From positions 17,588-81,587 of the forward strand of contig CAIKKP010000057.1 in the NCBI GenBank assembly GCA_903828055.1: a stretch of DNA of 64,000 bases. The letters run 5' to 3'. Within the stretch, counting starts at the first letter, position 1; every line of letters begins with the position of its first letter. The DNA comes from an uncultured bacterium. GTDB taxonomy: Bacteria > Patescibacteriota > Andersenbacteria > UBA10190 > CAIZMI01. The notes under the pieces were generated by a model that worked only from the letters and a program-made list of their open reading frames with translations, did not search any database and was not told where the DNA came from. A program made the translations under genes and the position numbers. Below are positions 1,517-17,215 of this stretch, piece after piece.

Positions 1517-1527
1517 CAGATAAAAAT

Positions 1528-1557
1528 AAAAGTCCCTAGCATGGGGCTTTTATTTTT
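1528..1557 (+). terminator. Rho-independent terminator after the tRNA
   Basis: AAAGTCCC-tagcat-GGGGCTTT stem followed by a U-tract. Confidence 0.6.
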
Positions 1558-1697
1558 ATCTTCCCAGGAGCAAACAACTGCTTGTTTGTGTGTTGGACTC
1601 GAAGCGCGCAGCGATGTTTTTGTTTGTCCGAAGGACAAGGCAAAAACCGCGAGCGGCGGCCTGCGAGAAATTTCCGTCAGGAAATTTACTTGTAGGC

Positions 1698-1775
1698 GAG
1701 TCCGACCCCGGGAGCTAACGAAAAATACCGCTAAACATGGCGGTATTTTTGTATACCAAGGTCGGGGTTTCGAAC
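1698..1775 (+). repeat. Cassette-array repeat unit U0 (3-prime part only): second copy of the tRNA 3-prime end + terminator + GTCGGGGTTTCGAAC core
   Basis: GAGTCCGACCCCGGGAGC duplicates the tRNA T-stem/acceptor 3-prime end. It is followed by the AAAATACCGC-taaacatg-GCGGTATTTT terminator and by GTATACCAAGGTCGGGGTTTCGAAC, as in units U1-U4. Confidence 0.75.
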
Positions 1776-1803
1776 CAATAAATCACATTAATTATAAACC
1801 GCG

Positions 1804-2214
1804 CTAAGTAGATTTTTGAGATTTCTGGCACTTCGGGCAGATTCCCTCAAGTTCGATTGTGTGGCGTTTAATAATATAGCCGGTAATACGACTCAATTTT
1901 ACTTCGTTAAAGTTAACATCGGATTCTTTAAGATCAGTAAAAGAACCACAGATTTCACATACGATATGATGATGGTGGGGCATATCAGCCCATTCGTATC
2001 TACTACCGCGTTCTCGCCAGTCAATATGTATAATTTTGCTCTCTTTCTCCAAACGGCTGACATTGCGGAAAACAGTTGAATAGGATGTTTTGGGGAGAGA
2101 GATTCTTACATAGTTAAATACTTCCTGCAAAGATATTGGTTTTTGCATTGTTTGAAAGATGTGGGTGATTAGTTTTTTAGTTTTTGTTTCTCTGGGTTTG
2201 ATAATGTGGGGCAT
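1804..2214 (-). CDS. zur: Fur-family transcriptional regulator, probably zinc uptake regulator Zur
   Basis: Winged-helix N-terminus, HHHH-x-C-x2-C and C-x2-C metal sites; divergent from znuACB. The listed start (2232) is TTG; an ATG at 2214 is used here. Confidence 0.8.
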   Translation of the reverse strand: MPHIIKPRETKTKKLITHIFQTMQKPISLQEVFNYVRISLPKTSYSTVFRNVSRLEKESKIIHIDWRERGSRYEWADMPHHHHIVCEICGSFTDLKESDVNFNEVKLSRITGYIIKRHTIELEGICPKCQKSQKST

Positions 2215-2241
2215 AAAAATGATATTAGGCAATAATGCATG

Positions 2242-2264
2242 TTATTGCAAGTTAGTTGCAATAA
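2242..2264. promoter_or_regulatory. Candidate Zur operator: perfect palindrome TTATTGCAA-gttag-TTGCAATAA in the zur/znuA divergent intergenic region
   Basis: 9-bp perfect inverted repeat arms with a 5-nt spacer, between the divergent zur and znuA starts. Confidence 0.5.
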
Positions 2265-2311
2265 GGATTGGTATTTTGTATTATCACCTTATTCAATTTT
2301 TTAATAAACAT

Positions 2312-3313
2312 ATGAGGAAAAATTATCTTATAATTTCTGGTATAGTCCTAATAATTTTAGTTGTTACAATTTTAGGTTTAAGCATGAGACCTAAAGATTT
2401 TCAAAAAAATGAAGGGGGAAAGATAAAAATAGTAACCACTCTATTTCCACTTTATGATTTTGCTAAAAATATTGGCCAGGACAAAGTGGAGATTTCACTT
2501 CTACTACCGCCCGGGGTTGAAGCACACACCTTTGAGCCAAAACCAAGTGATATTGTAAAAATCAATGAATCAGGGCTTTTTGTTTATACCGGAAAATTCA
2601 TGGAGCCATGGGCTGAAGATATTATCAAAGGTGTTACAAACAAAAATGTAAAGGTTGTTGATTCGAGCTTGGGCATAGAAATGATGGCTGAGGCAGAAGG
2701 TGCTCATGAAGGTGAGGCAGAAGGAGCGCATGCAGACGAACATGGCGCCGAAGCAGAAGAAGTCGGTCATGAGCACGGCGGAGTTGATCCGCACATATGG
2801 CTTGATTTTGATAATAATATAATCATGGTTGATAGCATAGTGAAAGCACTCTCAGAAAAAGATCCTACCAACGCTAATTTTTATCAAAAAAATGCAGATG
2901 AATACAAGAATAAATTGGCGCAATTAGATAATCGGTATAAATCCGGATTAACAAAATGCGAAAGCAAGGAGATTGTTTATGGCGGACATTATGCCTTTGG
3001 TTATTTGGGTAAAAGATACGGTTTGGCTTATGAGTCAGCGTATGGTATTTCTCCAGATTCAGAGCCATCAGCACAGGATTTGGCAAAACTCATTGAACAA
3101 ATCAAAAAAGAAAAAATCAAATATGTATTTTTTGAAGAGTTAGTCAGTCCAAAAGTTGCCGAAACCCTTGCCAAGGAAACTGGCACCGGACTGTTGCTTC
3201 TTAACCCGGCTCACAATCTCACCAAAAAAGATTTTGAAAATAATGTTTCCTTTCTCTCTATTATGGAAAAAAACTTAACTAATTTGAAAACTGGGTTACA
3301 ATGTAACAATTAG
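2312..3313 (+). CDS. znuA: Zinc ABC transporter substrate-binding protein ZnuA (His/Glu-rich loop)
   Basis: ZnuA/TroA-like fold with a His-rich insert HEGEAEGAHADEHGAEAEEVGHEHGG. Start chosen at the ATG (2312) that follows the TM/signal segment. Confidence 0.85.
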   Translation: MRKNYLIISGIVLIILVVTILGLSMRPKDFQKNEGGKIKIVTTLFPLYDFAKNIGQDKVEISLLLPPGVEAHTFEPKPSDIVKINESGLFVYTGKFMEPWAEDIIKGVTNKNVKVVDSSLGIEMMAEAEGAHEGEAEGAHADEHGAEAEEVGHEHGGVDPHIWLDFDNNIIMVDSIVKALSEKDPTNANFYQKNADEYKNKLAQLDNRYKSGLTKCESKEIVYGGHYAFGYLGKRYGLAYESAYGISPDSEPSAQDLAKLIEQIKKEKIKYVFFEELVSPKVAETLAKETGTGLLLLNPAHNLTKKDFENNVSFLSIMEKNLTNLKTGLQCNN

Positions 3314-3315
3314 GC

Positions 3316-4068
3316 ATGTCGATTGTTATTGAAGTAGACAATATCACTGTTAGCTACGGTCAGAGTGAGGCAATAAAGAATGTTTCATTCGAGATACAAA
3401 GTGGGGATTTTGTCGGTCTTGTTGGGTCAAATGGTGCAGGTAAAACAACACTGATAAAAGCGTTACTTGGATTGCTTCCAATATCTAGCGGTGAAATAAA
3501 GATTTTTGAGCAGAAAATAAAACAATTTAATCGATGGGATAAAATTGATTATTTGCCTCAAAATATCAAATCCATCAATCCGCTTTTTCCAGCTACGGTT
3601 GAGGAAGTAGTGTTTTTAGGGCTTCTGTCTTCAAAAAAATTTCCTAGGCATTTTTCACCTAATGACAAGTTGAGAGTAGAAGAGACATTGGGCTATATGC
3701 GTATAAACAACTTAAAAGACAAAGCTATATCGGAATTATCCGGGGGACAGCAACAACGAGTTTTGATTGCGCGCGCGCTTGTTTCAAAGCCGGAAATATT
3801 AATTTTAGATGAACCAACGGCGGCTCTTGATTCGAAATCAAGGGACGAGCTCATGAAATTAATCAAAAAACTCAATTGTGATTTTGGTATAACAATAATT
3901 TTGATTACGCATGATACAAATATTGTTTGTGAGTATGCGAGTAAGCTGATGTATTTAGACAGAAGAATGGTATTTTTTGGTGGAGTAAAGGAGTTCTATG
4001 AGAAATATAATCACGGTGAATTGTTGGATGAATATGGGAAACATTTAATTAGTCATCAACTTAAGTAA
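3316..4068 (+). CDS. znuC: Zinc ABC transporter ATP-binding protein ZnuC
   Basis: Walker A GSNGAGKTT, signature LSGGQQQRV, Walker B ILILDEPTAALD. Confidence 0.9.
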   Translation: MSIVIEVDNITVSYGQSEAIKNVSFEIQSGDFVGLVGSNGAGKTTLIKALLGLLPISSGEIKIFEQKIKQFNRWDKIDYLPQNIKSINPLFPATVEEVVFLGLLSSKKFPRHFSPNDKLRVEETLGYMRINNLKDKAISELSGGQQQRVLIARALVSKPEILILDEPTAALDSKSRDELMKLIKKLNCDFGITIILITHDTNIVCEYASKLMYLDRRMVFFGGVKEFYEKYNHGELLDEYGKHLISHQLK

Positions 4069-4883
4069 TGAATATGGACATAATAAGTTTCTTGCAGTAT
4101 TCGTTTATCCAGAAAGCATTCTTTGCAGGATCTTTTGTGGCGGTTACTTGTTCCGTTCTTGGCTTGTTCTTAGTGTTGCGAAAAATGTCGCTGATCGGTG
4201 ATGGGCTTTCTCACGTAAGCTTCGGAGCGATCGCTCTTGGTTTATTTCTTGGCATTTATCCTTTCTATGTTGCTGTGCCGGTAGTGATGCTTGCGTCAAT
4301 TGTGATTTTGAAGATTAGCGAGAAAGCAAAGATTTATGGAGATTCGGCGATTGGTATTGTGTCGGCTGTCGGTATTGCCGGAGGTGTAATTTTAGCTAGT
4401 GTTTCTAAGGGCTTTAATGTCGACCTGTTTAGCTATCTTTTTGGCAACATATTAGCGATCAGTAATACTGAAGTTGTTTTGTCAGTTATACTTTCTTTTG
4501 TTGTTCTTGTGGTTATTTATTTCTTCTACTGGGATTTATTTTCCGCCACATTTGATGAAGAGTATGCCAAAACAACAGGGATAAAGACAAATTTCATTAA
4601 CATACTTCTTACATTGCTCACGGCAGTAACTGTTGTTTTGTCTGTTAAGATGGTTGGAATAATGTTGGTGTCGGCGTTGCTTATTTTGCCTGCGGTTACG
4701 GCGCTTCAGCTGGCTAAAGGTTTCAAGGTGGCCATGATTATTGGGTGTTTTGTATCGTTATTTTCGGTTTTATTTGGCATAACGTTGTCGTTTTTCCTTG
4801 ATTTGCCAAGCGGGGCAACTATTGTGATGATAAATGCGATATTGTTTTTTCTTGCGATTACTTACAAAAAGTTTGTTGCATAG
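4068..4883 (+). CDS. znuB: Zinc ABC transporter permease ZnuB
   Basis: ABC-3 family polytopic permease; start overlaps the znuC stop. Confidence 0.88.
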   Translation: MNMDIISFLQYSFIQKAFFAGSFVAVTCSVLGLFLVLRKMSLIGDGLSHVSFGAIALGLFLGIYPFYVAVPVVMLASIVILKISEKAKIYGDSAIGIVSAVGIAGGVILASVSKGFNVDLFSYLFGNILAISNTEVVLSVILSFVVLVVIYFFYWDLFSATFDEEYAKTTGIKTNFINILLTLLTAVTVVLSVKMVGIMLVSALLILPAVTALQLAKGFKVAMIIGCFVSLFSVLFGITLSFFLDLPSGATIVMINAILFFLAITYKKFVA

Positions 4884-4932
4884 TAGCAATGTGTTCGTAT
4901 TTCACAAAATTTAGAGCATCCAAAGACATCTG

Positions 4933-5081
4933 AACAATAGTGTAGTCAGGGGTGGGGTAAACCGATTTTCTTGGTAAAACTCATCATTCTGGTTCGGTAG
5001 TCCACCGACCCTCGGAGCCGCATCTTAAATAATCGCTAATAATCGCGGTTATTTTTGTATACCAAAGTCGGGGTTTCGAAC
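4933..5081 (+). repeat. Cassette-array repeat unit U1 (full: 5-prime motif + tRNA-3-prime-end-like segment + terminator + GTCGGGGTTTCGAAC)
   Basis: Contains AACAATAGTGTAGTCAGGGGTGGGGTAAAC, then ATTCTGGTTCGGTAGTCCACCGACCCTCGGAGC, the AATAATCGC/GCGGTTATT terminator, and GTATACCAAAGTCGGGGTTTCGAAC. Confidence 0.8.
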
Positions 5082-5130
5082 TGATAATAAATTGGAACTA
5101 TATACAAAATTGTGTTTTAATTAAGTAATC

Positions 5131-5874
5131 ATGAACATCAAACAACAATTCACAACAGTCACACGATTATCAAAAATCGTGGCATCAATATTATTTATTG
5201 CGTTGCCGTTTATTGGTTTTTATTTGGGGATGAAGTATGAAGAATCTATTTTAGCTTATCAGCCGACTATTATTGTTACTCCACAATCCAGAGAATTATC
5301 TCAGTCGCAAGTTGCTCCAATAGATTCGGAAAAACAGAGACAAACTGAAATTGACACTACGGAATGGAAAACTTTAAAAAACAAGTTTGGTTGGAGTATT
5401 AAATATCCACCAACGTGGGAGGCCTCAGGCCAGCACAATGTTATTGCTGAAGACTTTGTTGCACCAATTATCCAAGGACCAAAAGGTTGTTATAAGAATA
5501 AAGCAGAATGTGGAAGCATTCAGGTTGATGTACCATCGGCTATGACAGACATTTATAAAAATGTGTCGCCTAGTCAATACGAACTAGAAAAGTTTAAAAA
5601 TGCCCCGTTCCAAATATTAAAAAATCAAAATGAATCATTAGTCAATGGTAACCCTGCATTCGAAGTGACATATTTGATTAGTAATGATGGTCAATTTCCA
5701 AATGGAAGATATGTTAAGGAAATAGCAATCAAACATAAAGAAGATATTTACGTAATTAGTTATGACGCAGGATCTAATGATTCTTCGGGTAGAGGAATTA
5801 CGGGTTTACCAGAGGATTGGCAGCTTGCTCCTGTTTTTGGGAAAATGCTCTCAACATTGAAATTTTCAGAATAG
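5131..5874 (+). CDS. Hypothetical N-terminally membrane-anchored protein (cassette gene)
   Basis: 247-aa ORF with one N-terminal TM segment; no recognisable family. Confidence 0.6.
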   Translation: MNIKQQFTTVTRLSKIVASILFIALPFIGFYLGMKYEESILAYQPTIIVTPQSRELSQSQVAPIDSEKQRQTEIDTTEWKTLKNKFGWSIKYPPTWEASGQHNVIAEDFVAPIIQGPKGCYKNKAECGSIQVDVPSAMTDIYKNVSPSQYELEKFKNAPFQILKNQNESLVNGNPAFEVTYLISNDGQFPNGRYVKEIAIKHKEDIYVISYDAGSNDSSGRGITGLPEDWQLAPVFGKMLSTLKFSE

Positions 5875-5897
5875 TATTACTATCAATAATTGTGAAA

Positions 5898-6041
5898 ACA
5901 ATAGTGTAGTCAGGGGTAGGGTAAACAAACATGCTTGTTTATAGGCATCATTCTGGTTCGGTAGTCCACTGACCCTCGGAGCATCTGAAATAATCGCTAT
6001 AATTAGCGGTTATTTTTGTATACCCAGGTCGGCCATCGAAC
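5898..6041 (+). repeat. Cassette-array repeat unit U2 (full)
   Basis: Same architecture as U1 (GGGGTAGGG variant; 3-prime core GGTCGGCCATCGAAC). Confidence 0.8.
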
Positions 6042-6132
6042 CAAAATATGGCAGTATTGACATTTTGATTAATTACAATTATAATTCAGTGTTCTTTGTT
6101 GCCTTGTTACCTCAAAATGAAGAGGAAGAAAA

Positions 6133-6489
6133 ATGCCTCAAAAAGTAAGGTTTTGTGTCGACTGCCTAAGCGACGTCGGGGTTAACGCTGTCATTAGTGC
6201 TTTGGGAGAAATGTCTGGTGACAAGTACTGTCCGGGTTTAATGAAGAAAGACGTTAAGAGGCGCAGCGATCGAAAATTGGAGTACAGAGTTAAGTCACAA
6301 CAGGGAATGGTTGATTCTGTCGAACTAGAAGAAGCAAATCCTTGGCGCGTGACTGTCGAAGGTGATGTACAAGCAGTTCGACGTTTCGCAGGGCTAGTCT
6401 GTTTCGTTTGCGGTCCAGAGTATGTGGTGCAGTATGATGGCACCGAGACAACTGCACTACAAGCGTCTCTTCCGGCTGCTACCTCCTGA
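6133..6489 (+). CDS. Hypothetical Cys-rich protein (GC-rich cassette gene)
   Basis: 118-aa ORF with RBS GAAGAGGAAG and its own terminator; roughly 50% GC against a roughly 38% background. Confidence 0.55.
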   Translation: MPQKVRFCVDCLSDVGVNAVISALGEMSGDKYCPGLMKKDVKRRSDRKLEYRVKSQQGMVDSVELEEANPWRVTVEGDVQAVRRFAGLVCFVCGPEYVVQYDGTETTALQASLPAATS

Positions 6490-6512
6490 GACAGAATTGT
6501 CCTGTCCATGCT

Positions 6513-6541
6513 CTCCGACCTCGCAAGGGGTCGGTTTTTTG
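6513..6541 (+). terminator. Rho-independent terminator
   Basis: CCGACC-tcgcaa-GGGGTCGG followed by T6. Confidence 0.7.
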
Positions 6542-6558
6542 TTTACGAAAAATTTCTA

Positions 6559-6703
6559 AACAATAGTGCAGTCAGTGGCGGGGTAACGTAATCTTCTTCT
6601 TAGAATCCATAATTCTGGTTCGGTAGTCCACCGACCCTCGGAGCATCTTAAATAATCGCTAACTACAGCGGTTATTTTTGTATATCCAAGTCGACCATTG
6701 AAC
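6559..6703 (+). repeat. Cassette-array repeat unit U3 (full)
   Basis: AACAATAGTGCAGTCAGTGGCGGGGTAAC … TTCTGGTTCGGTAGTCCACCGACCCTCGGAGC … terminator … GTCGACCATTGAAC. Confidence 0.8.
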
Positions 6704-6770
6704 TAGAGTATTTGTTTTATATCCTGTTGGCTGAATTGATACTAAAAGAAATATCTGACATAATTATTTC

Positions 6771-7229
6771 ATGGAACGAAATGCAAATGGTATTCAGCCT
6801 AGGCCATCCGTTGGCTTGGGAATTTATATATTCAATGAAGAAGGTAAAGTCCTGTTAGGTAAAAGAAAAAGTTCGCATGGGTCAGGTGAATATGCGGCTC
6901 CCGGTGGGCACTTGGAATTTGGAGAATCCTTTGAAGAAGGTTGTAAAAAAGAGGTTAAGGAAGAGACTGATCTAGATATTAGAGAAATTGAATTTTTTGA
7001 TGTTCAAAACAATCTTCGTTATGTAGAAACCAAAGGAAAACATTACGTGACCCTATCATTCAAGGCGCATTTTTTTAGTGGAACACCAAAAGTAACTGAA
7101 CCCGAAAAGTGTGAGTCTTGGGATTGGTATTCTTTGGACGCTTTACCTTCCCCTTTATCTGAGTTTGCTGAGGTTGCATTAGCTAAATTGAGGAGTGGAA
7201 TAGTTGGCGAACCTCATTCAAATTTGTAG
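6771..7229 (+). CDS. NUDIX hydrolase
   Basis: Nudix box GGHLEFGESFEEGCKKEVKEETDL. Confidence 0.85.
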   Translation: MERNANGIQPRPSVGLGIYIFNEEGKVLLGKRKSSHGSGEYAAPGGHLEFGESFEEGCKKEVKEETDLDIREIEFFDVQNNLRYVETKGKHYVTLSFKAHFFSGTPKVTEPEKCESWDWYSLDALPSPLSEFAEVALAKLRSGIVGEPHSNL

Positions 7230-7242
7230 ATATTATTCCCAA

Positions 7243-7389
7243 ACAATAGTGTAGTCAGGGGGGGGTAAACATACGATTCTCTTCTGTGTGCTCATTATTC
7301 TGGTTCGGTAGAGCACCGACCCTCGGAGCATCTGAAATAATCGCTAACTACAGCGGTTATTTTTGTATACAAAAGTTGGGGTTTCGAAC
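7243..7389 (+). repeat. Cassette-array repeat unit U4 (full; G9 run replaces GGGGTGGGG)
   Basis: AACAATAGTGTAGTCAGGGGGGGGGTAAAC … GGTTCGGTAGAGCACCGACCCTCGGAGC … terminator … GTTGGGGTTTCGAAC. Confidence 0.8.
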
Positions 7390-7433
7390 CAGGAATTAAG
7401 ACATTTTTAACAAGATTTTGTCATAATTTTAAT

Positions 7434-7462
7434 TTGACAAGAACTGTCACTTGTGCTATCAT
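7434..7462 (+). promoter_or_regulatory. Sigma-70-like promoter (TTGACA, 17 bp, TATCAT) for the GC-rich two-gene cassette
   Basis: Consensus -35 with a near-consensus -10 at ideal spacing, about 110 nt upstream of the 7573 start. Confidence 0.5.
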
Positions 7463-7572
7463 TCTATGTTCACTATGCAGGTTTTCTGCATCGTGCAACG
7501 GGTTCTTTTCACAAGGAAAACTCAGGCTTGATGTTTTCCAGGCACGCGTTTCAATGAAAGGAGCGCAGGATC

Positions 7573-8157
7573 ATGGCTCAAGGCAAACGAGTCAAAGGCT
7601 TTGTCGTAGGTCACGACAAAAAAGGTCAGATGGAAGTCTGGAAGGTGCGAGTGAAAGACCAGTCTTCTCATCATGATGGAAGTAAGTTCGAGGTTGCATC
7701 CGTGCATCCAGGAGTCGAACTGAAACCGTCAACCGACGTCACGTTTCGAATCGAACCCCTTCAGGTCGAAGGTGAGTTTGTGCTGAAAGCCGTTGATGTC
7801 GCCACTGGAACGGTTACTACCGAACCCAGTCGGCAGCCAGTGCGGAGCAAGTCGGAAGGATCACCCACGATGTTCGTGTGTGTGACCGAAATGGTCAGTA
7901 CTGGTGACGTTAATGTGTTTCTTACAGGATTTGAGGACATCCAAGAGGCTCGATCGCAAATCGATGAGACAACAGAGCGCGTGCTCGGGTTGCTCGGAAT
8001 TGATCTGCAACCGCCGCATCTTGGTTCTGAAGAACTGACAGGTCTCGAAATCATCGAACGTTTGTCCTGGGTGGACACCACGCGCGATGCGATTGAGTAT
8101 TTGTTAGCAGAGGTCTTCAAGTTCGGCCAGACAATCTCCGAAATGAAGGGTCAATGA
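7573..8157 (+). CDS. Hypothetical protein (GC-rich, likely foreign)
   Basis: 194-aa ORF with RBS AAAGGAG; roughly 55% GC; translationally coupled (ATGA) to the next ORF. Confidence 0.6.
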   Translation: MAQGKRVKGFVVGHDKKGQMEVWKVRVKDQSSHHDGSKFEVASVHPGVELKPSTDVTFRIEPLQVEGEFVLKAVDVATGTVTTEPSRQPVRSKSEGSPTMFVCVTEMVSTGDVNVFLTGFEDIQEARSQIDETTERVLGLLGIDLQPPHLGSEELTGLEIIERLSWVDTTRDAIEYLLAEVFKFGQTISEMKGQ

Positions 8158-10320: not shown

Positions 10321-10349
10321 GAAGTGAAATCAATCGAGATCTTTTTGCA

Positions 10350-10552
10350 GGTAAACATGTCGTGAATAGAACGGAATCATTGTTCGAACTTTCTTCGTTC
10401 CGGCGAGCCGCGTAAAAAGATTGCCGAGCAATCTTCACGCGGCCACGTGGGACGTGAGCGCACGCATGCGCTTTTACGTCCTTTACATGGCTGAACAAAT
10501 AATACCGCTAATCATGGCGATATTTTTGTGGAGGGAAGTCGGGTGGCGAACC
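10350..10552 (+). repeat. Cassette-array repeat unit U6 (variant with GC-rich palindromic insert)
   Basis: GGTAAACATGTCGTGAATAGAACGG…TTGTTCGAACTTTCTTCGTTCCGGCGAGCC…; AAATAATACCGC-taatcatg-GCGATATTTTT terminator; GTGGAGGGAAGTCGGGTGGCGAACC core. Confidence 0.7.
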
Positions 10553-10555
10553 ATC

Positions 10556-11137
10556 ATGTATAATCAGTTTATGGAAAATAATTTACTTAAAGTTAAAGAA
10601 GGAATCACGACTATTATTAAAGAATCTCCGATTGCTTCAGATGTTGAACATGCTGAGCGGACGTTAAAATGGTTGCTGGTATTAAAACCTAATGCTGACG
10701 ATGCACTTCAGGTTGCGGCCTACGGGCATGATATTGATAGGGGTGTAACAAAAATAACTAATAAGGATTTGGCGGATATGAAGGATTACGATAAAGATCG
10801 CAAAGAACATTCAGAAAGATCCGCGAGATTTCTTGCGGAATTACTGGTGAAGAATGGACTAAGTAGTGCTTTTATTCAAAAAGTTAAGGCACTTGTTGAA
10901 AAGCATGAGGTTGGAGGAGACGAAGAATCCGATATTCTTAGAGACGCGGATAGTATTGCCTATTTTGACTACAATATTCCTCTTTACCTTCAAAGAAACG
11001 GGGAAGAAAAAGGCAGATATAAAATTAACTACATGTACGATCGCGCATCCGAAGGCGCAAAAATAATAATAAAAACATTAAAGTTTGATGATGAAAACAT
11101 TCAAAAGATTGTCAATGAAGAATTGAACAAGAAATGA
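10556..11137 (+). CDS. HD-domain phosphohydrolase
   Basis: HD motif (AAYGHDIDRG). The ATG at 10556 was chosen because the longer ORF would run into repeat U6. The stop overlaps the next gene's start (ATGA). Confidence 0.7.
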   Translation: MYNQFMENNLLKVKEGITTIIKESPIASDVEHAERTLKWLLVLKPNADDALQVAAYGHDIDRGVTKITNKDLADMKDYDKDRKEHSERSARFLAELLVKNGLSSAFIQKVKALVEKHEVGGDEESDILRDADSIAYFDYNIPLYLQRNGEEKGRYKINYMYDRASEGAKIIIKTLKFDDENIQKIVNEELNKK

Positions 11138-12087
11138 CACCCCTCGATAGAATAAAATACTCAGGAAATATCGATGAATTGATTCATAAAATTTCTGACA
11201 TACACAATGTCGGACACGTAAATAATTTTTCCATTATCGAAACTGGCTATGAGGACTGCAATGTTGTTATTGAAACCAATGAAGGAAAATATTTAACGAA
11301 AATATTTTCGAAAAACCGTAGCAAGGAAGATGTTTTGCGCTATAGCATGATAATGGAGAAGGCGGTTGACGCTGGCGTTAATCATCCAGCCCTTATCAAA
11401 ACACGAGAAGGGGCTTGGGTTGGTCAGGCTGTTGAAGATGTTTTTGAGGTGTTAATGAATTACGTTGATGGAAAAACATTCTATCAATCAGGTTCTATGC
11501 CCAACAAAGAAGAACTTAATGTTGTTCTAGAACAAGCAGCAAAGATTAATAGAATAGACCACCATCCAAAGTATTTATTTGATTCATGGGCTATTTCAAA
11601 TATTCAATCGATGTATGAACGCATAAGGCAATATATTAAGCCAGATGATGCCCAGCTTATTGTGAAGGCAATTGATAATTATTTAAAAATTCCAGTAGCA
11701 GATTTGCCTCATTGTTTTGTGCATGGGGATTTTACTAAAGCCAATGTGTTGAAGGGGAATGATAGCAAAATCTATATTTTGGATTTTTCCGTTTCAAATT
11801 GGTACCCAAGAATGCAGGAACTTGCCGTGATTGCGGCCAATCTTTTACATGACGAAAAACATACTTCGTCCTTGCGTGAAAGATGTGATTTGGTTTATAC
11901 GAATTATAACTTGTTGAACCCACTCACAAAATTAGAGCATGACAATTTGTTTACTTACTCTGTTGCGGGATTAGCAATGGAACTTCTAGGTTCATACCAG
12001 GAGCGATTTATTAATGGCAATGATAATGAAGAAACACGCTTTTGGTATAATCTTGGTCGTGAAGGCTTGCGAGAGGCACTTAATTAA
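11134..12087 (+). CDS. Aminoglycoside/choline-kinase-type phosphotransferase (APH family)
   Basis: Brenner motif VHGDFTKANVL and IYILDFS; protein-kinase-like fold. Confidence 0.75.
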   Translation: MTPLDRIKYSGNIDELIHKISDIHNVGHVNNFSIIETGYEDCNVVIETNEGKYLTKIFSKNRSKEDVLRYSMIMEKAVDAGVNHPALIKTREGAWVGQAVEDVFEVLMNYVDGKTFYQSGSMPNKEELNVVLEQAAKINRIDHHPKYLFDSWAISNIQSMYERIRQYIKPDDAQLIVKAIDNYLKIPVADLPHCFVHGDFTKANVLKGNDSKIYILDFSVSNWYPRMQELAVIAANLLHDEKHTSSLRERCDLVYTNYNLLNPLTKLEHDNLFTYSVAGLAMELLGSYQERFINGNDNEETRFWYNLGREGLREALN

Positions 12088-12093
12088 GTTCAA

Positions 12094-12317
12094 AACAATA
12101 GTGTAGTCAGGGGTGGGTAACCAAACATTCTTCTTCATGAGCATTATTCTGGTTCGGTCCTTCGACACGGCAGGATGAGTACTTCGACTGCGCTCAGCAC
12201 AAGTAGTCCACCGACCCTCGCTACGCCCCGAAGCGAACTTTGTTCTGCTTCGGGGGAGCTAACAAAAAATACCGCTAATCATGGAGATATTTTTGTGGAG
12301 GAGAGTTGGATTCCGAA
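12094..12317 (+). repeat. Cassette-array repeat unit U7 (long form with extra hairpin CCGAAGC…GCTTCGG)
   Basis: 5-prime motif, then GGTTCGGTCCTTCGACAC…GTAGTCCACCGACCCTCGCTACGCCCCGAAGCGAACTTTGTTCTGCTTCGGGGGAGC, terminator, and GTGGAGGAGAGTTGGATTCCGAAC. Confidence 0.8.
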
Positions 12318-12393
12318 CTGAGGCCATTTTTCGCTGTTCGTACTTCAGTGAGTCGGAATGAGGGAAAACTAGTGATAGGTGTACAATTTGACT

Positions 12394-12912
12394 ATGCCAA
12401 AAGTATTAATTGTTACTGGTCCGGGCGGTGCTGGCAAAACAACAATCGCTCAGATGGTCGCGGAGAGATGTGGTTCTATTTATCTGGATGCCGATAGTGA
12501 AGATACAGAGTTTTTTCCTGATGGTGGCCAGTGGTTGCCAGAGAATTCAGAAAAACTAAAAAAAGCGCATGAAAAAATTCTCAATAAGACGAGCGAACTG
12601 ATTGAAAAAGGACACAGTGTTGTTGTTGACTATATTATTTTTGGTCGGTACGCCGAGTTTTTTGATATGTTTCGTAGTCGATTTGGAAGTGGCCTGCTAA
12701 TTAAGGTTCTTTTTCCAACAGAAGCGGTTACCGTTAAGCGGGATAAGGAACGAGATTGTTGGACAACCGGGGAGGAGAGAATAAAAGCTGTTTCTGGAGA
12801 ACTTTGGGATGTAAAAGAAATTGTAGGTAAAGAAAATTTCATAGATACTTCAAATCAGTCCTCTGAGGAAACGTTTAACAAATATTTCTCTAATTGTTTC
12901 AAAGCACCCTGA
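12394..12912 (+). CDS. P-loop kinase (AAA_33 / chloramphenicol-phosphotransferase-like)
   Basis: Walker A VTGPGGAGKTT at the N-terminus; small nucleotide-kinase fold. Confidence 0.65.
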   Translation: MPKVLIVTGPGGAGKTTIAQMVAERCGSIYLDADSEDTEFFPDGGQWLPENSEKLKKAHEKILNKTSELIEKGHSVVVDYIIFGRYAEFFDMFRSRFGSGLLIKVLFPTEAVTVKRDKERDCWTTGEERIKAVSGELWDVKEIVGKENFIDTSNQSSEETFNKYFSNCFKAP

Positions 12913-12914
12913 TT

Positions 12915-13841
12915 ATGTCTAAAAAAGGCAATGCCATCATCGAGTTAGCAGAAAAAAAGATACATGGTTCGATTAAAGACATTACTCAGGTTATTAATAA
13001 AGGCCATATGAATGAAGTTTATCTAGTTAAAACAGATAGACAAAATGTCATATTAAGGGTTAACGAACCATCAAGTTTTGAAAGGTTTAAAAAAGAATGT
13101 TGGTGTGCTGAGGAGGCAGCATTAATGGGTGTTCATACTCCAAAAGCGTTGGAAGTGGGTATTGGTGGTGAACATTCTTTTATTCTATTTGACTACATTG
13201 AAGGAAAGAATGGTGCTGAAATAGTTCAATCTCAAGACTTGTGGTACCAACTGGGTATACAGTTGAAAAAAATACACAATATCAGTGTCAATGGTTTTGG
13301 AGAAGAACTAAGCGATATTAGAAGTGGAAATTTTGATGAATGGAAAAAATATATCGACTACAATATTAATTCGTTAAACAAAGGCGATCAACTTCGTAAA
13401 AGAGGGGTTCTGAATGATGAAAATTCTGCGAAGATACAAAGTTTGCTTAGTTCGTTGCTTGATAAAAAATTCAATTTTGGGTTGTCGCATGGAGATTATT
13501 CATTGGCAAACGTAATTGTTGATAATCGTTCAGTACCAAATATTATTGATTGGGGATGCGCGCAAGCCCACGTAGTACCAGATTACGACTTCGGAATAAT
13601 TATCGATGAAAGTGTTGGAGAAAATACCGAATATTTTAAAGCGTTGTTGAACGGATATGGTATGACAGAATCTGATTATTTAGATATCAAGAATGAAATT
13701 ATGGTTTTGCAGTTGTTGGTTGCATTAGATAAGCTTCGGTGGGCGATGGACAAGAATACCAAACGCATTGAATTTTACGTGGCGCAGGTAACCAAGTTTG
13801 TTAAAAAAAACAACAGTGTAGTCAGAGGCGGGGTAAACTGA
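12915..13841 (+). CDS. Aminoglycoside-phosphotransferase-family kinase (second APH-like cassette gene)
   Basis: SHGDYSLANVIV and IIDWGCA motifs. The C-terminus (…NNSVVRGGVN*) is encoded by a read-through copy of the 30-nt repeat motif (TAG changed to CAG). Confidence 0.75.
   Translation: MSKKGNAIIELAEKKIHGSIKDITQVINKGHMNEVYLVKTDRQNVILRVNEPSSFERFKKECWCAEEAALMGVHTPKALEVGIGGEHSFILFDYIEGKNGAEIVQSQDLWYQLGIQLKKIHNISVNGFGEELSDIRSGNFDEWKKYIDYNINSLNKGDQLRKRGVLNDENSAKIQSLLSSLLDKKFNFGLSHGDYSLANVIVDNRSVPNIIDWGCAQAHVVPDYDFGIIIDESVGENTEYFKALLNGYGMTESDYLDIKNEIMVLQLLVALDKLRWAMDKNTKRIEFYVAQVTKFVKKNNSVVRGGVN
13809..13838 (+). repeat. Repeat 5-prime motif alone (U8), translated as the gene's C-terminus
   Basis: AACAACAGTGTAGTCAGAGGCGGGGTAAAC; no terminator or 3-prime core follows. 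Confidence 0.7.
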
Positions 13842-13922
13842 TTTTCATTTTAATTAGTGCAATTTCATATGCATACACGCGGGGCGTAGACGTCAGAACG
13901 TTTCGTTGTTAAAATCCGCTTA

Positions 13923-15017
13923 ATGGCCACCGAATTTATAAAAGGAATTGAGTTAAGCAGACGGTTTTGTCAAGAAATAGTTAAACCAATCCTTGATTCT
14001 GAGTTTCTGGGATTAAAATATTCTTCGGCCCTTATTGGTTGGGGGTCAGAAGTGTTGGGTTATGATACTGAAATTTCCAGAGATCACCACTGGGGTCCTC
14101 GGTTATTGATTTTATTGAATGAAGAAGATTTTGTGGAATTAAAGGAAAAAATATCTCAAAAGTTATCTGAAAAACTTCCATATGAATTCATGGGCTATTC
14201 CACCAACTTTTCAAATGCAAAAGAACACGGTGTAAGAAGTGCAGAAAAAATAATCAGTGGCCCAGTAAATCACATGATTGAATTTTTTACTATCAAATCC
14301 CTTTGGTTAATGCGTTTGGGTTTTGACCCATATCAAGAGATTTTAAACCATGATTGGTTATCATTTCCTCAACAGAGATTGCTTGCTTTAACAAGTGGCG
14401 AAGTATATTTCGATGGATTAGGTGAATTGGAAGAAGTAAGAAATAAATTTCACTATTATCCCAATGAAGTTTGGCTCTATCTTTTGGCATCGCAGTGGAC
14501 AAAAATCGCACAAGAGCAAGCATTTGTCGGGCGTACAGGTGATGTTGGGGACGAATTGGGATCCCGCGTAGGGGCTTCTCGGCTGGTGCGAGAAATAATG
14601 AAATTGTGTTTCTTGATGGAGAAGAAATATTATCCTTATACCAAGTGGTTCGGCACCGCTTTTGAAAATTTGAATATTGCACCAGTTTTGTCACCAATAT
14701 TATCTCGCGTGTTTTTAGCGACTTCGTGGAAGGAAAGAGAAAAGTATCTTTCTGAAGCATATAAAGTGATTGCGATAGCACATAACTTATTAAAAATAAC
14801 TAAGCCATTATCTACGGAAGTTTCTCTCTATCACGAAAGACCATATTTGGTCATAAGTGCCGATGAATTTGTGAAAGCCATAATTACTGAAATCAAGGAA
14901 GAATCACTAAAAAAACTTCCCGTGATTGGTTCCATTGATCAATTTGTTGATAGCACTGATGTTTTAGATGAACCATTGTTGTGCAGGAAATTGAAGACAG
15001 TGTACGAGAATCCATAG
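13923..15017 (+). CDS. Hypothetical protein (possibly DUF4037-like)
   Basis: 364-aa ORF; family assignment is from memory only. Confidence 0.55.
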   Translation: MATEFIKGIELSRRFCQEIVKPILDSEFLGLKYSSALIGWGSEVLGYDTEISRDHHWGPRLLILLNEEDFVELKEKISQKLSEKLPYEFMGYSTNFSNAKEHGVRSAEKIISGPVNHMIEFFTIKSLWLMRLGFDPYQEILNHDWLSFPQQRLLALTSGEVYFDGLGELEEVRNKFHYYPNEVWLYLLASQWTKIAQEQAFVGRTGDVGDELGSRVGASRLVREIMKLCFLMEKKYYPYTKWFGTAFENLNIAPVLSPILSRVFLATSWKEREKYLSEAYKVIAIAHNLLKITKPLSTEVSLYHERPYLVISADEFVKAIITEIKEESLKKLPVIGSIDQFVDSTDVLDEPLLCRKLKTVYENP

Positions 15018-15029
15018 TATTCAAATTTT

Positions 15030-15434
15030 ATGAACGAAACAACACCATACTCACAACTAATAAAACCATCATGGGCTCCGCCGGGCTGGGTTATTGGGCC
15101 GGCATGGACGGTGCTCTATGCAATTATTGTCGTTTCTTTCGGTACTATTTTTTATAAAGCATTCACCAAGCAAATTCCGTGGGTGGTGGCTCTCCCTTTT
15201 GCACTCAATCTTGTTTTTAACTTTGTCTTTGCGCCAATACAATTCCGCTTGGTAAATAATTTTCTCGCATCGATCGACATCTTGCTCGTCGTCGGCACGC
15301 TCATCTGGGCGCTCTGTGCTGTCTGGCACGCTTCACCTGAGCTCCGCTGGGTGGTCTACGCCAACATTCCATATCTTCTGTGGGGAACATTTGCAACTTG
15401 TGTGCAATTAACAATAACTTATTTAAATAGGTGA
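15030..15434 (+). CDS. TspO/MBR-family tryptophan-rich membrane protein
   Basis: KPSWAPPGWVIGPAWTVLY motif and five TM helices. Confidence 0.7.
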   Translation: MNETTPYSQLIKPSWAPPGWVIGPAWTVLYAIIVVSFGTIFYKAFTKQIPWVVALPFALNLVFNFVFAPIQFRLVNNFLASIDILLVVGTLIWALCAVWHASPELRWVVYANIPYLLWGTFATCVQLTITYLNR

Positions 15435-15551
15435 TGATTAATTTTAGATTTTGTTGGTTTATTTGTCATCATTTACGGATTTGGCCGATGAGTACATTGG
15501 TGGATGGCTAAAATGGCCGGAGAGTGAAAATATCGATGCTATCATTCTGAC

Positions 15552-15875
15552 ATGGGCATTGTTGTTTTTTTGAGACAATTCAAAATTGGACCGTTTGCTG
15601 TTTTCGATTTTGTATTAGCATATATTGGAGTATTTTTTATTGCTCTACTTTTAACAAAGTTGTTTTTAAGACTTAATCTTAAAATTTCACGAGAATCGTG
15701 GCTCTGGTTGACCTTGCCAATATCGGTGTTGTTTCATGCAGTTTTTCAGCAAAACACGCCTTTAATGAAGATTCTATTGAACCCAAATGGTTTTTATGTG
15801 GAAAAGGCGGTATTAATATTTATGCTTTTTATGGGATTGAGAAAGATTCGCTTAGTTAAGGTCGCGAAACAATAG
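15552..15875 (+). CDS. Small hypothetical membrane protein
   Basis: 107 aa, three TM helices; the stop codon is the first TAG of the repeat motif. Confidence 0.5.
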   Translation: MGIVVFLRQFKIGPFAVFDFVLAYIGVFFIALLLTKLFLRLNLKISRESWLWLTLPISVLFHAVFQQNTPLMKILLNPNGFYVEKAVLIFMLFMGLRKIRLVKVAKQ

Positions 15876-15897
15876 TATCGTCAGGGGTGGGGTAAAG
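15868..15897 (+). repeat. Repeat 5-prime motif alone (U9)
   Basis: AACAATAGTATCGTCAGGGGTGGGGTAAAG. Confidence 0.7.
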
Positions 15898-15923
15898 TGA
15901 TTATTTCTGTATAATGTGAACAT

Positions 15924-16475
15924 ATGGCAGATGAATTAATCGATATTGTTGATGAGAACAATAACCTCATTGGTGTCCAGAAGATGAAAAGTGAGGCGCA
16001 TCGGGATGGTTTGTGGCATAGAACGGCGCATCTTTGGTTATATAACTCAAAAGGTGAAATTCTGCTTCAGTTGCGAGCGAAGAATAAAAAGTTGTATCCA
16101 GCATTATGGGATGTTTCCGCGGCTGGTCATATTGGTGCTGGTGAAGAGCCTATTGTCTCCGCGCTAAGAGAAGCGGATGAAGAAATTGGTATTCAACTCA
16201 GAAAGGATCAACTAGATTTCTTTAAAACAAGAAAGGTCATGGCAGTTTATCGAGAAATAAAAAACAATGAATTTTGCTATGTATATTTGGCAAAATATGA
16301 TGGCGGCGCTAAGAATCTAAGGTTGCAGAAGGAAGAAGTGGAAGAAATTAAATTTGTTTCACTTGTTGAATTGGAAGCTAATTTGCGCGAAAAATCGGAA
16401 CATTATGTTCGACATGGGAAATATTGGGATGATGTTATTGCGGAAATCAAAAGAAGGGTATTGATTAAACAATAG
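15924..16475 (+). CDS. NUDIX hydrolase
   Basis: Nudix box GHIGAGEEPIVSALREADEEIGI; the stop codon lies inside the repeat motif. Confidence 0.8.
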   Translation: MADELIDIVDENNNLIGVQKMKSEAHRDGLWHRTAHLWLYNSKGEILLQLRAKNKKLYPALWDVSAAGHIGAGEEPIVSALREADEEIGIQLRKDQLDFFKTRKVMAVYREIKNNEFCYVYLAKYDGGAKNLRLQKEEVEEIKFVSLVELEANLREKSEHYVRHGKYWDDVIAEIKRRVLIKQ

Positions 16476-16700
16476 TGTAGTCAGGGGTGGGGTAAACATA
16501 CATGCTTCTTCATAAGCACAATTCTGGTTCGGTCCTTCGACACAGCTCAGGATAAATACTTCGACGCGGCTCAACATAAATAGTCCACCGACCCTCGCTA
16601 CGTCCCGAAGCGAGCTTTGTTCTGCTTCGGGGGGGGGGGGGGCTAACAAAAAATACCGCTAATCATGGCGGTATTTTTGTGGAGGGGAGTCGGATGCCAA
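16468..16700 (+). repeat. Cassette-array repeat unit U10 (long form; contains a G14 homopolymer)
   Basis: Near-identical to U7; G14 run at 16629-16642; terminator; GTGGAGGGGAGTCGGATGCCAAATTGG. Confidence 0.8.
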
Positions 16701-16740
16701 ATTGGTAGACTAGTTTCCGTTGAGAGCATATTATAAAAAA

Positions 16741-17136
16741 ATGATTACAAAAGAAAAAGTAAAGGAAATAATAGAAATATATAGTGAAGCATGGAAAAAC
16801 CAGGGTGTCGAACAGATATTGACGATCTTTACAAAGGACGCAAAATATCAAGAAGGTTTTTTATCTGAACCAATGGTTGGACACGAGGAGATTAGAAAAT
16901 ATTGGAACAAAAAGGTTGTCCTTGAGCAGAAAAGTATTCAATTCAAACTAGTTAGAATAATGATTGATGGTAATGATTGTTTGGTGGAATGGCACGCTGA
17001 GTTTGATGATCTAGTTTCGGGAGAGCATGTAAAAATGGTTGAAGTCGCATTTCTTGAATTTTTGGGCGATATGGTTTCATCTTTGCGAGAAAATTGGGAT
17101 ACGATCAGAATACCAATCGCTCAAAAAATAGTGTAA
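16741..17136 (+). CDS. SnoaL/NTF2-like (ketosteroid-isomerase-fold) protein
   Basis: About 130 aa with an NTF2-like pattern; the stop TAA falls in the GTGTAATCAGG variant of the repeat motif. Confidence 0.55.
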   Translation: MITKEKVKEIIEIYSEAWKNQGVEQILTIFTKDAKYQEGFLSEPMVGHEEIRKYWNKKVVLEQKSIQFKLVRIMIDGNDCLVEWHAEFDDLVSGEHVKMVEVAFLEFLGDMVSSLRENWDTIRIPIAQKIV

Positions 17137-17154
17137 TCAGGGGTGGGGTAAAAC
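17124..17154 (+). repeat. Repeat 5-prime motif alone (U11); last recognisable unit of the array
   Basis: AAAAATAGTGTAATCAGGGGTGGGGTAAAAC. Confidence 0.7.
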
Positions 17155-17215
17155 AGGCACCAATAAACGTAAAATAATTGGTTGCGTAGATATTGAAAGT
17201 TGATATAGTAAACTA

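Follow-up and report, generated by a model that had tools for sequence, protein, structure and literature searches.

The region from a tRNA-Asn gene to ~21.9 kb of the window (the whole 64-kb stretch of DNA analysed) is probably a flexible genomic island of ~20 kb in which cassettes accumulated serially at a tRNA hotspot. We put at about 45% the probability that it arose as small self-expressing gene blocks inserted again and again, in a fixed orientation, at the tRNA-Asn integration hotspot. An earlier sequence-only reading had described unrelated accessory blocks lying in one orientation at the tRNA and separated by a repeat, and we found this repeat almost nowhere else. Its gene list agreed with our Pfam assignments. 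Its ~14 single-gene cassettes resolved into ~11 blocks of mutually unrelated accessory genes, several with 2–4 genes, and its array end at 17160 moved outward, since decayed units at 18972–19026 and 21884–21974 carry the array to 21.9 kb. The features are as follows.

1014–1516, +: tRNA-Asn(GUU); exon 1 1014–1047, group I intron 1048–1478, exon 2 1479–1516
1518–1696, +: gene-less spacer between the tRNA and the copy of its 3' end; terminator hairpin 1527–1560, terminator-like site 1534–1546
1697–1776, +: U0; 19-nt tRNA copy 1697–1715, TAAC, terminator B 1725–1749, end motif GGTCGGGGTTTCGAACC; repeat family D12, nhmmer against the unit right half E 1.9e-12
1804–4883: block 1; zur 1804–2232 (−), znuA, znuC and znuB 2159–4883 (+); Pfam FUR, ZnuA, ABC_tran, ABC-3
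4933–5081, +: U1, full unit, 110 bits; motif 1 4933–4962, variable hairpin, mimic ending GGAGC at 5018, terminator A 5028–5057, end motif to 5081
5131–5874, +: PsbP_2-like cassette gene (Pfam PF18933)
5897–6045, +: U2, full unit (repeat families, motif, covariance model)
6057–6540, +: cassette with a 118-aa ORF of unknown function (6133–6489, GC 49%); perfect sigma-70 promoter match 6057–6085, own terminator 6515–6534
6559–6707, +: U3, full unit (repeat families, motif core, covariance model)
6736–7229, +: NUDIX cassette; promoter-like site 6736–6764, gene 6771–7229
7243–7389, +: U4, full unit (repeat families, motif core, end motif, covariance model)
7434–8985, +: high-GC two-gene cassette; promoter match 7434–7462, ORFs 7573–8157 and 8154–8909 (GC 51–52%), own terminator 8945–8968
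8993–9060, +: U5, variant left half, ..GGTAAAC..GGTTCGAAC..CGGCGAGCC; repeat family D7
9146–10320, +: AAA_14/DUF4143 ATPase cassette; promoter-like site 9146–9174, gene 9184–10320; PADLOC candidate PDC-S01
10342–10553, +: U6; variant left half 10342–10409, 75-nt GC-rich insert, terminator B and end motif 10485–10553; repeat families D7 and D4
10556–12087, +: DUF4202/HD protein and APH-type kinase block (Pfam; gene start adopted from the L001 call)
12094–12320, +: U7, two hairpins inserted, terminator B; families D3, D4 and D6; 65 bits
12388–13841, +: AAA_33 P-loop kinase and APH/fructosamine-kinase-like block (Pfam); the latter gene reads through motif 1, which encodes its C-terminus NNSVVRGGVN
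13809–13852, +: U8, motif 1 and part of the variable region; 44 bits
13923–15875, +: DUF4037 protein, TspO and 107-aa ORF block (Pfam); the stop of the 107-aa ORF is the first TAG of motif 1
15868–15906, +: U9, motif 1 only (motif search, covariance model)
15924–16475, +: NUDIX (IPP-isomerase-like) cassette gene; stop codon within motif 1
16468–16704, +: U10, two hairpins inserted, terminator B; poly-G tract 16630–16643; 70 bits
16741–17136, +: SnoaL_2/NTF2-like cassette gene; stop codon within motif 1
17124–17153, +: U11, motif 1 only (motif search, covariance model)
17216–19025, +: His_Phos_1, Ser_hydrolase and methyltransferase block (Pfam)
18972–19042, +: U12, decayed motif 1 and A-type terminator 19018–19041; covariance model E 0.0027; family D5
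19105–21867, +: large surface-protein gene (DUF2341, Big_5, CarboxypepD_reg)
21884–21974, +: U13, decayed motif 1, last copy, preceding the first minus-strand gene; covariance model E 2e-5

The full unit was ~150 nt long on the plus strand and had five successive parts: a 30-nt motif (motif 1) overlapping or adjoining the stop codon of the preceding gene, a short variable hairpin, a mimic of the tRNA T-arm and acceptor 3' end whose last bases are GGAGC, an intrinsic terminator, and the mimic's arms in inverted copy. Flanking the terminator as an inverted repeat, the arms (GGTTCG..CCGACC and GGTCGG..CGAACC) are complementary over 5–11 bp. All twelve positions at which the sequence-only reading had placed a copy held a unit or part-unit on the plus strand, far beyond chance. 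Its four-part layout held for the only units with all parts present (U1–U4) and failed elsewhere, where we found variant left halves (9001 and 10350), hairpin insertions (12094 and 16468), or motif 1 alone (15868, 17124 and, with part of the variable region, 13809). Motif 1 was the best-conserved part: with ≤3 mismatches it matched 6 times in the window against 0 expected, and its 17-nt core 9 times against 0.07, all on the plus strand between 4933 and 17143. GTCCACCGACCCTCG was present 6 times, and the end motif had 3 close copies (1746, 5052 and 7360). Beyond U0, 13 copies (11 by covariance model, U5 and U6 by repeat family) lay on the plus strand at 4.9–22 kb, clustered at block ends, and the remaining 42 kb of the window held none. 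Covariance-model scores from the tRNA-proximal to the distal end were 110, 109, 109, 101, 65, 44, 34, 70, 29, 20 and 28 bits, those of U1–U4 being inflated because the model was built from them; units become poorer the farther they lie from the tRNA. A terminator resembling that of the unit also occurs outside the array, at 25682.

The sequence-only reading had suggested a search of other genomes, and this placed the repeat beside different genes in two other organisms. A motif-pattern search recovered one genome among 185,579 species, with a single locus, and one metagenome contig. Copies in L008 stand beside ferredoxin, unknowns and a high-GC gene, and those in L009 beside small unknown ORFs and a CAP-domain protein. 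With three carrier organisms only, the generality of the unit cannot be judged.

The anchor was indeed an intron-containing tRNA. Rfam Intron_gpI matched 1053–1470 (E 1e-9; 44 bits, under the gathering score of 50), and the joined exons equal the 72-nt intron-less tRNA-Asn(GTT) called by ARAGORN in relatives L012 and L014. ARAGORN alone missed the split gene in the window. Intron-less copies occupy the equivalent place in related genomes. A separate mini-hairpin repeat family active in this lineage also occurs within the tRNA intron. At 1697–1715, 178 nt past the tRNA, 19 nt of its 3' end are repeated exactly, and a unit right half follows directly. The tRNA resemblance described for the full unit is strong only in U0 and one L008 copy. 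U0 matched the tRNA 3' end at 20/26 positions. The internal mimic matched it at 17/26 ungapped, a strength reached ~0.5 times per shuffled window, and the mimic's similarity, taken alone, is statistically marginal. The mimic could not restore a working tRNA-Asn.

On the left side of G(G/C)GAGC we found four kinds of sequence and on its right another four, paired in several ways as hybrid units. Kinship breaks at GAGC| and not at the GGTTCG cores proposed earlier, which suggests that the recombination joint lies there. U5 was 85% identical to 10342–10409, with similarity stopping at GAGCC, and these two 68-nt direct copies of a half-unit bracket the AAA_14 block (9061–10341). A unit of L008 is split by a 1.1-kb high-GC gene directly 3' of GGAGC. 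Both the flanking duplication and the split unit are Campbell-type signatures. On the insertion reading, each block would import, or be captured beside, a composite boundary unit. Its left half (motif 1, hairpin, mimic ending GGAGC) would close the upstream block, and its right half (intrinsic terminator and inverted arms) would insulate transcription ahead of the next block's promoter. The joint would fall at or adjoining GAGC|, a position equivalent to the tRNA end, and the recombination enzyme would act in trans. We infer that insertion was site-specific and added one block at a time, that blocks closer to the tRNA are the newer ones, and that single cassettes are mobile.

Several results count against the insertion reading, the marginal mimic among them. 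A clean site-specific scheme does not predict three units reduced to motif 1, and a terminator-bearing repeat could persist for expression reasons alone. As claimed earlier, the window encodes no recombinase: none of ~60 ORFs scanned had a recombinase domain. The 64-kb window and the 8 kb of L008 contained neither a tyrosine or serine recombinase nor an HUH transposase, nor remnants of these; L008 had only an rve-type IS transposase there. We saw neither an excised circle nor the suggested presence/absence polymorphism among 13 same-population contigs from several samples; their arrays were identical apart from poly-G length (13–15 G in U10, depending on assembly). Successive integration at a tRNA site is partly supported: Campbell-type signatures, unit reuse and a hotspot in relatives speak for it, and the lack of any integrase, circle or polymorphism in this material speaks against it.

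The island was missing from six related genomes. In all relatives fetched by RpoD other than L023, whose contig ends inside the intron, tRNA-Asn lay right after rpoD with differing downstream DNA, and no unit or array-gene homologue was found at the locus. In relatives the locus has proved to be an integration hotspot; elements with a large serine recombinase occupy the tRNA in three of the six genomes (L010, L011 and L022), and the L022 recombinase ORF terminates within tRNA exon 2. L010, L011 and L024 have an analogous spacer (~125 nt), after which comes a partial, decayed tRNA 3' end. These elements and this layout are also what one would cite for the quite unlikely reading that the island is debris of successive larger integrase-carrying elements, prophages or tycheposon-like, each having lost its integrase and backbone and left behind cargo with a partial-tRNA scar; partial tRNAs and decayed elements are indeed scattered through tycheposon islands (bioRxiv 10.1101/2020.12.28.424599). 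However, no integrase, terminase or replication-gene fragments were found within the island, block size is very small (964, 662 and 685 nt from one unit start to the next), serine-recombinase scars are not expected as 150-nt repeats, and a tRNA has no counterpart of the conserved motif 1 or of the terminator.

Tycheposons build tRNA-anchored flexible genomic islands in Prochlorococcus, and newer insertions are thought to displace older ones outward (bioRxiv 10.1101/2020.12.28.424599). Their islands resemble the present one in the proximal full tRNA, internal partial tRNA-like repeats, decayed remnants and niche-type cargo including zinc uptake, as well as in tyrosine or large serine recombinases at the tRNA, here in relatives only (bioRxiv 10.1101/2020.12.28.424599). 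The present island differs in having no integrase or replication module, blocks down to 0.66 kb, a 150-nt composite repeat with a non-tRNA 30-nt motif and terminator, and a Parcubacteria-type host.

The unit may instead act mainly at the RNA level, as a structured 3'-UTR element and terminator that ends and insulates transcription units, perhaps with a tRNA-like processing or stability signal, and spread by duplication, gene conversion or ordinary homologous recombination. It would then be no site of recombination. We consider this reading possible but doubtful. Every full unit had a hairpin and T-run with G.U pairs functional on the plus strand only, the plus strand folded more stably than the minus strand in 8/10 units, motif 1 overlaps or adjoins stop codons, promoter-like sites come after the units, and there is the similar terminator beyond the array. 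Stems of the inserted hairpins stayed paired despite base changes (CCCCGAAGC/GCTTCGGGG vs CCCTGAAGT/ACTTCGGGG and CCCCTGAAGC/GCTTCAGGGG). Yet an RNA module should be spread genome-wide, and the unit was missing from 42 kb of this contig and confined to one locus in L008. No structure of the unit showed significant covariation, no Rfam family or tRNA model matched it, and its best-conserved part, motif 1, stands without the terminator. By GC skew the plus strand here is the lagging-strand template, so the strand asymmetry cannot discriminate between RNA and single-stranded DNA.

Modular units with nested small hairpins, each terminating in GGGAGC or GGGGAGC, inverted-repeat arms around the terminator, and one strand for all copies as in single-strand transposition would also suit non-autonomous selfish repeats (MITE, REP or PATE type) that have subterminal hairpins, depend on a transposase encoded elsewhere, and home to a short target such as GAGC or to terminators; the genes between them would be ordinary island genes and not cassettes. 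The separate mini-hairpin family is likewise active in the lineage. This reading is unlikely: unit ends had no target-site duplications or conserved terminal inverted repeats, the window held no Y1/HUH or other transposase, and viral, phage and plasmid collections gave no unit matches. Copies are limited to one island and regularly placed, one per gene-block end, with stop codons within motif 1. Correia/NEMIS, ERIC and REP/BIME elements are transcribed palindromic intergenic repeats with terminator activity. They resemble the unit in length (~100–150 nt), inverted arms, position in 3' regions, transcription, and terminator or processing capability, but they are dispersed genome-wide in tens to hundreds of copies and both orientations, whereas the unit keeps to a single island and a single strand.

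Chromosomal integrons and CALIN arrays consist of unrelated genes pointing the same way, with a similar structured repeat behind each gene, as in VCR-type homogeneous attC arrays, and integrons recombine the bottom strand. The array shares ORF ends running into the repeat and a species- or lineage-specific repeat family. The integron analogy drawn earlier held for the one-orientation accessory array with its boundary repeat and failed on promoters, terminators and attC. That the array is itself a classical integron, or an attC cluster lacking an integrase (CALIN; Cury et al. 2016 reportedly treat both), is very improbable, even with stop codons inside some repeats and no integrase nearby, as in CALIN. 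RYYYAAC and GTTRRRY cores (R''/R') were missing, as were intI or any IntI-type gene, attI and Pc; folding favours the coding strand rather than the bottom strand; several blocks are multi-gene; and the site resembles a tRNA 3' end. The cassettes had also been called promoterless, but the best sigma-70 matches in the region lay between a unit and the next ATG, and with own promoters and a terminator in every full unit, integron expression logic is inapplicable.

A phage moron is a single accessory gene that has inserted among others and brings its own promoter and terminator. The blocks are likewise self-expressing accessory genes placed among others, but morons have no conserved separating repeat and are not arrayed at a tRNA. 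Two cassettes stood out in composition as claimed, with GC of 49–52% (6133–6489 and 7573–8909) against 35–40% for other array genes, a mixture that speaks for the insertion reading. Proteins of the 7434–8985 cassette had only two distant homologues in the protein collection, at 38–39% identity.

Motif 1 (AACAATAGTGTAGTCAGGGGTGGGGTAAAC), the conserved 30-nt start of the repeat unit, had six matches at ≤3 mismatches against none expected, and its 17-nt core had nine against 0.07 expected, all on the + strand within 4933-17143. Repeat search, nhmmer profile and covariance model together recovered all twelve positions (U0-U11) proposed in the earlier, sequence-only reading of this DNA, and its description of a repeat family at gene boundaries in a single, + orientation was thereby borne out. 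The covariance model added two decayed units, at 18972-19026 (E = 0.0027) and 21884-21974 (E = 2e-5), and found none in the other 42 kb of the window. With these copies the array extends past 17160, where it had been thought to stop, to 21.9 kb, where the co-oriented gene block ends. The mimic and the last part listed below, numbered second and fourth in the sequence-only reading, recur as first described. The unit has the following parts:

Part 1: motif 1, 30 nt, at or over the stop codon of the upstream gene
Part 2: variable stretch of ~23 nt with a short hairpin
Part 3, the T-arm/acceptor-3'-like "mimic": ATTCTGG-TTCGG-TAGTCCA-CCGAC-CCTCGGA-GC
Intrinsic terminator, type A: ATCT..AATAATCGC..GCGGTTATTTTTG
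Intrinsic terminator, type B: TAAC..AATACCGC..GCGGTATTTTTG
Last part: GTCGGGGTTTCGAACC, its arms an inverted repeat of the GGTTCG..CCGACC of the mimic

Only U1-U4 are complete (~80% mutual identity); the others depart from the full set:

U0: true tRNA 3' copy joined to the right half (terminator plus inverted arms)
U5, U6: a common left half unlike that of other units
U7, U10: two inserted hairpins each
U8, U9, U11: motif 1 alone kept

Three ORFs end within motif 1 and one kinase gene reads through it. In the latter, an APH-type kinase ORF at 12915-13841, motif 1 is crossed in the only open frame with a stop just after, giving the C-terminus NNSVVRGGVN. Every full unit holds a predicted terminator, recognised on sequence by a GC-containing hairpin with a T-run behind it on the transcribed strand. 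Beyond the array, a bidirectional terminator at 25682-25704 has the same stem as terminator B (AATACCGC..GCGGTAT). We rejected the terminator stem as a genome-wide uptake-like word; its matches outside the array were coding DNA without hairpins, except the one at 25682.

The array was said to be anchored at a tRNA split by an intron. ARAGORN called no tRNA in the window, and Rfam gave no match there at gathering thresholds. A relaxed Rfam scan placed a group I intron at 1053-1470 (Intron_gpI, 44.1 bits, E = 1e-9, below the gathering score of 50) between two exons:

1014-1047: tRNA-Asn(GUU), exon 1
1479-1516: tRNA-Asn(GUU), exon 2, giving 72 nt when joined

Once joined, they match without a difference the intron-less tRNA-Asn gene that ARAGORN called in the corresponding position, after rpoD, in relatives L012 and L014. 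The predicted core fold, and exons that would join into a functional tRNA, bear out a group I intron in a tRNA as the anchor. The intron (431 nt within 1014-1516) sits in the anticodon loop; among L010, L011, L012, L014, L022 and L024, related loci fetched through RpoD, it is missing in two and of other lengths in four, so both whether it is present and how long it is vary within the lineage. The rpoD-tRNA spacer (880-920) and the intron (1384-1421) each hold a copy of a mini-hairpin repeat, CTTTGCG..palindrome..GAAGCAATC, that is also present in the relatives L011, L012, L022, L023 and L024.

Copies of the tRNA 3' end had been proposed for the repeat as a whole. In U0 this is literally so, with an exact 19-nt copy that is the sole + strand match of ≥18/26 in the window apart from the tRNA itself (a - strand match of 18/26 at 7705 was taken as chance). 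A unit copy in L008, a locus of another organism, carries AGTTCGAGTCCGATTGCGGGAGC, which matches the tRNA at 19/23. In full units, however, the mimic aligns ungapped to the T-stem, T-loop, T-stem, acceptor 3' strand and discriminator at only 17/26, a strength that occurs ~0.5 times per shuffled window and twice by chance in this one, and it keeps the stems and not the loop. Position lifts this likeness above chance: the GAGC at the end of the mimic abuts the same right half as the true tRNA copy does in U0. Derivation of the mimic from the tRNA 3' end is likely but not proven. Rfam gave no tRNA match even at E = 10, and neither ARAGORN nor Rfam fitted the unit to a cloverleaf or model. Two further derivations were discarded. 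The left half is 72 nt long in U1-U3 and the L008 copy L8A, and its TCAGGGG could pair with CCTCGGA; a pseudo-tRNA origin did not hold up to shuffling and was set aside as unproven, the 5' 47 nt being no more tRNA-like than shuffles and 29/73 identity being common across the window. An origin from the intron 3' end plus exon 2 gave short matches only (TAGTCCAC and G|TAAC).

The sequence-only reading placed the break points at GGTTCG cores; we found that kinship between units stops instead at G(G/C)GAGC. Four kinds of sequence can precede this point (true tRNA copy, mimic, GC hairpin, cassette end) and four can follow it (TAAC with terminator B, ATCT with terminator A, CATGAAG hairpin module, cassette DNA), several of the pairings occurring in both genomes. 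Two 68-nt copies of the variant left half bracket the AAA_14 block, and their likeness ends at GAGCC. In L008 a 1.1-kb high-GC gene, starting immediately 3' of GGAGC, lies between the left half of a unit (5353 to 5256) and its right half (4133 to 4056). Such breaks are the marks expected of a recombination joint, which we place provisionally at G(G/C)GAGC.

RNAalifold predicted a two-step hairpin in the mimic, all of its pairs invariant. Hairpin stems stayed paired despite base changes. Two alternative long-range helices showed no significant covariation. Long-range helices between motif 1 and the mimic, or between the two inverted arms, were rejected on this ground, G.T and A.C mismatches being about equally common. 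In most units the + strand folds more stably than the - strand. By GC skew the + strand is also the lagging-strand template, so RNA and single-stranded DNA are not separable here. The strand preference and the terminators would suit a unit acting mainly as an RNA-level terminator and insulator module; we regard that as possible though doubtful. A selfish hairpin repeat seems unlikely. The strict strand bias, and the presence of hairpins close to the GAGC joint on either side, would fit PATEs of the IS200/IS605 type or REP/RAYT elements. No Y1 HUH transposase was found within the window. The units differ from MITEs in having no terminal inverted repeats (their arms are internal, with only 5-11 bp of complementarity), no flanking target-site duplications, and copies confined to one locus rather than dispersed.

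Pfam agreed with the accessory gene list first drawn up for the array. Most array genes have 35-40% GC, against 49% at 6133-6489 and 51-52% at 7573-8909, in accord with the two high-GC cassettes reported earlier. Homologues of the high-GC cassette at 7434-8985 were only two, at 38-39% identity, on short contigs that held no units. The AAA_14/DUF4143 ATPase (9184-10320) matches the PADLOC phage-defence candidate PDC-S01 (E = 3e-149). The strongest sigma-70-like matches within 800-19500, called by consensus match only, each lie past a unit and ahead of the start codon that follows:

6057-6085: sigma-70-like match, 12/12 consensus
7434-7462: sigma-70-like match, 11/12 consensus
6736-6764: sigma-70-like match, 10/12 consensus
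9146-9174: sigma-70-like match, 10/12 consensus

With a terminator per full unit and these promoter-like sites, the blocks look like independent transcription units and not the promoterless cassettes that had been supposed. The -10 boxes near 6736-6771 and 9146-9184 end just 7-10 nt upstream of the ATG, and most array genes have no visible Shine-Dalgarno sequence, which suggests leaderless or near-leaderless mRNAs in the array.

The likeness to integrons held in part. As in integrons and CALINs, co-oriented ORFs are each followed by a site. An IntI-type tyrosine recombinase is absent beside the array (a CALIN does not require one), and, by eye, GGTTCGG, TCGAACC and GGGGTAAAC do not fit the attC cores R'' RYYYAAC and R' GTTRRRY, the GTTTAC partner being missing in the units. 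Integron cassettes are mostly promoterless and read from a common promoter, whereas the blocks here have promoter-like sites and terminators of their own. Three of the four defining features tested are lacking, so the resemblance to integrons is one of function only. That the array is truly an integron or CALIN is highly improbable.

The array contig was found 100% identical in several assemblies of one lake data set. Presence/absence polymorphism of cassettes, expected on the earlier reading, was not seen among 25 contigs from two array-linked protein look-ups, all with one order. Thirteen contigs with the gene downstream of the array also kept the order, and only the poly-G in U10 varied (13-15 G). 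This tract, at 16630-16643, has 13, 14 or 15 G between assemblies, either as real length variation or as homopolymer error. A degenerate motif 1 pattern hit one genome (L008, a single locus) among 185,579 species representatives, and one metagenome contig (L009). These two loci share no DNA with the window except the units, which border other genes there. Motif 1 was absent from viral, phage and plasmid collections (viral contig scan; blastn against phage/plasmid records), and a profile from six-frame unit translations, meant for spurious or read-through ORFs elsewhere, gave no match at E up to 10. In L008, the minus-strand ORF at 5933-5340 is interrupted by an in-frame TAG, after which the frame stays open for 37 codons up to the first motif 1 TAG; read-through, an error or a pseudogene could account for this.

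By its RpoD homologues, the organism belongs with Parcubacteria/Andersenbacteria-like candidate-phyla-radiation (CPR) bacteria. In six relatives (RpoD 83-95% identical) the corresponding position also holds tRNA-Asn, with no unit or array-gene homologue at the locus. In every relative that could be checked tRNA-Asn follows rpoD and the downstream content differs, so that, as in tRNA islands, an intact tRNA borders a region variable between relatives. Large serine recombinase elements occupy the same tRNA in three of the six, with these genes adjoining tRNA-Asn:

L022, 11194-12717: large serine recombinase; the ORF ends within tRNA exon 2, and its last 15 codons are the exon 2 reverse complement
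L010, 16171-17463: large serine recombinase
L011, 5810-7026: large serine recombinase

The island could on this pattern be debris of larger integrase-carrying elements. We think this quite improbable; tblastn with the recombinases of the relatives matched only the overlap with the tRNA and no remnant. The integrase, tyrosine or large serine, that tRNA islands carry inside the element is missing in the window, and a domain scan of its ORFs found no Phage_integrase or other recombinase domain, upholding the earlier statement. Terminase and ParB-methylase genes are also nearby in L010 and L011. At L010 13359-13520, L011 3750-3905 and L024 9926-10078, a terminator-bearing spacer of ~125 nt separates the tRNA from a partial, decayed tRNA 3' end (AGTTCGAGTCCGGAATACCCGGGGATCGGAC), the same layout as the tRNA, 178-nt spacer and U0 of the window; right after the partial end the three differ from each other.

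Our preferred reading, at a probability of roughly 0.45, is a flexible island at a tRNA-Asn hotspot that grew as small self-expressing blocks were inserted one after another in a single orientation, with the unit as boundary or attachment element. The inserting enzyme would be encoded elsewhere. Unit quality, as covariance-model score, drops with distance from the tRNA, which fits growth at the tRNA end; the scores of U1-U4 are inflated because the model was built from them. Among described systems, the tycheposon-shaped Prochlorococcus island comes nearest. The architecture is genuine and rare, from a little-known lineage, and adds a further variant to tRNA-anchored islands or cassette arrays; its mobility, and any mechanism for it, are putative. 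We would entertain only tentatively a stand-alone CPR gene-capture system of serial self-expressing cassettes with a tRNA-3'-mimic site, a joint at GAGC| and a trans-acting non-IntI recombinase or single-strand transposase. A cassette would then comprise promoter, gene and conserved 30-nt end motif, and the integron principle would have been invented independently, from a tRNA attachment site.

How Parcubacteria-type bacteria, with their tiny genomes, come by accessory genes is poorly understood. Should the unit be a genuine recombination site, it would define a compact cassette system distinct from integrons, searchable by its signature of the 30-nt motif and ...GGAGC, and would connect integration at tRNAs with cassette arrays. 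The terminator module with its tRNA-like arm is 90-100% conserved between organisms with no other common DNA, and even if it acts only in RNA such a unit would be a new regulatory element. Elsewhere, the window carries a TfoX_N competence-regulator-like gene (23388-23765) and a major-vault-protein-like gene with Vault, Vault_3 and MVP_shoulder domains (45358-47082).
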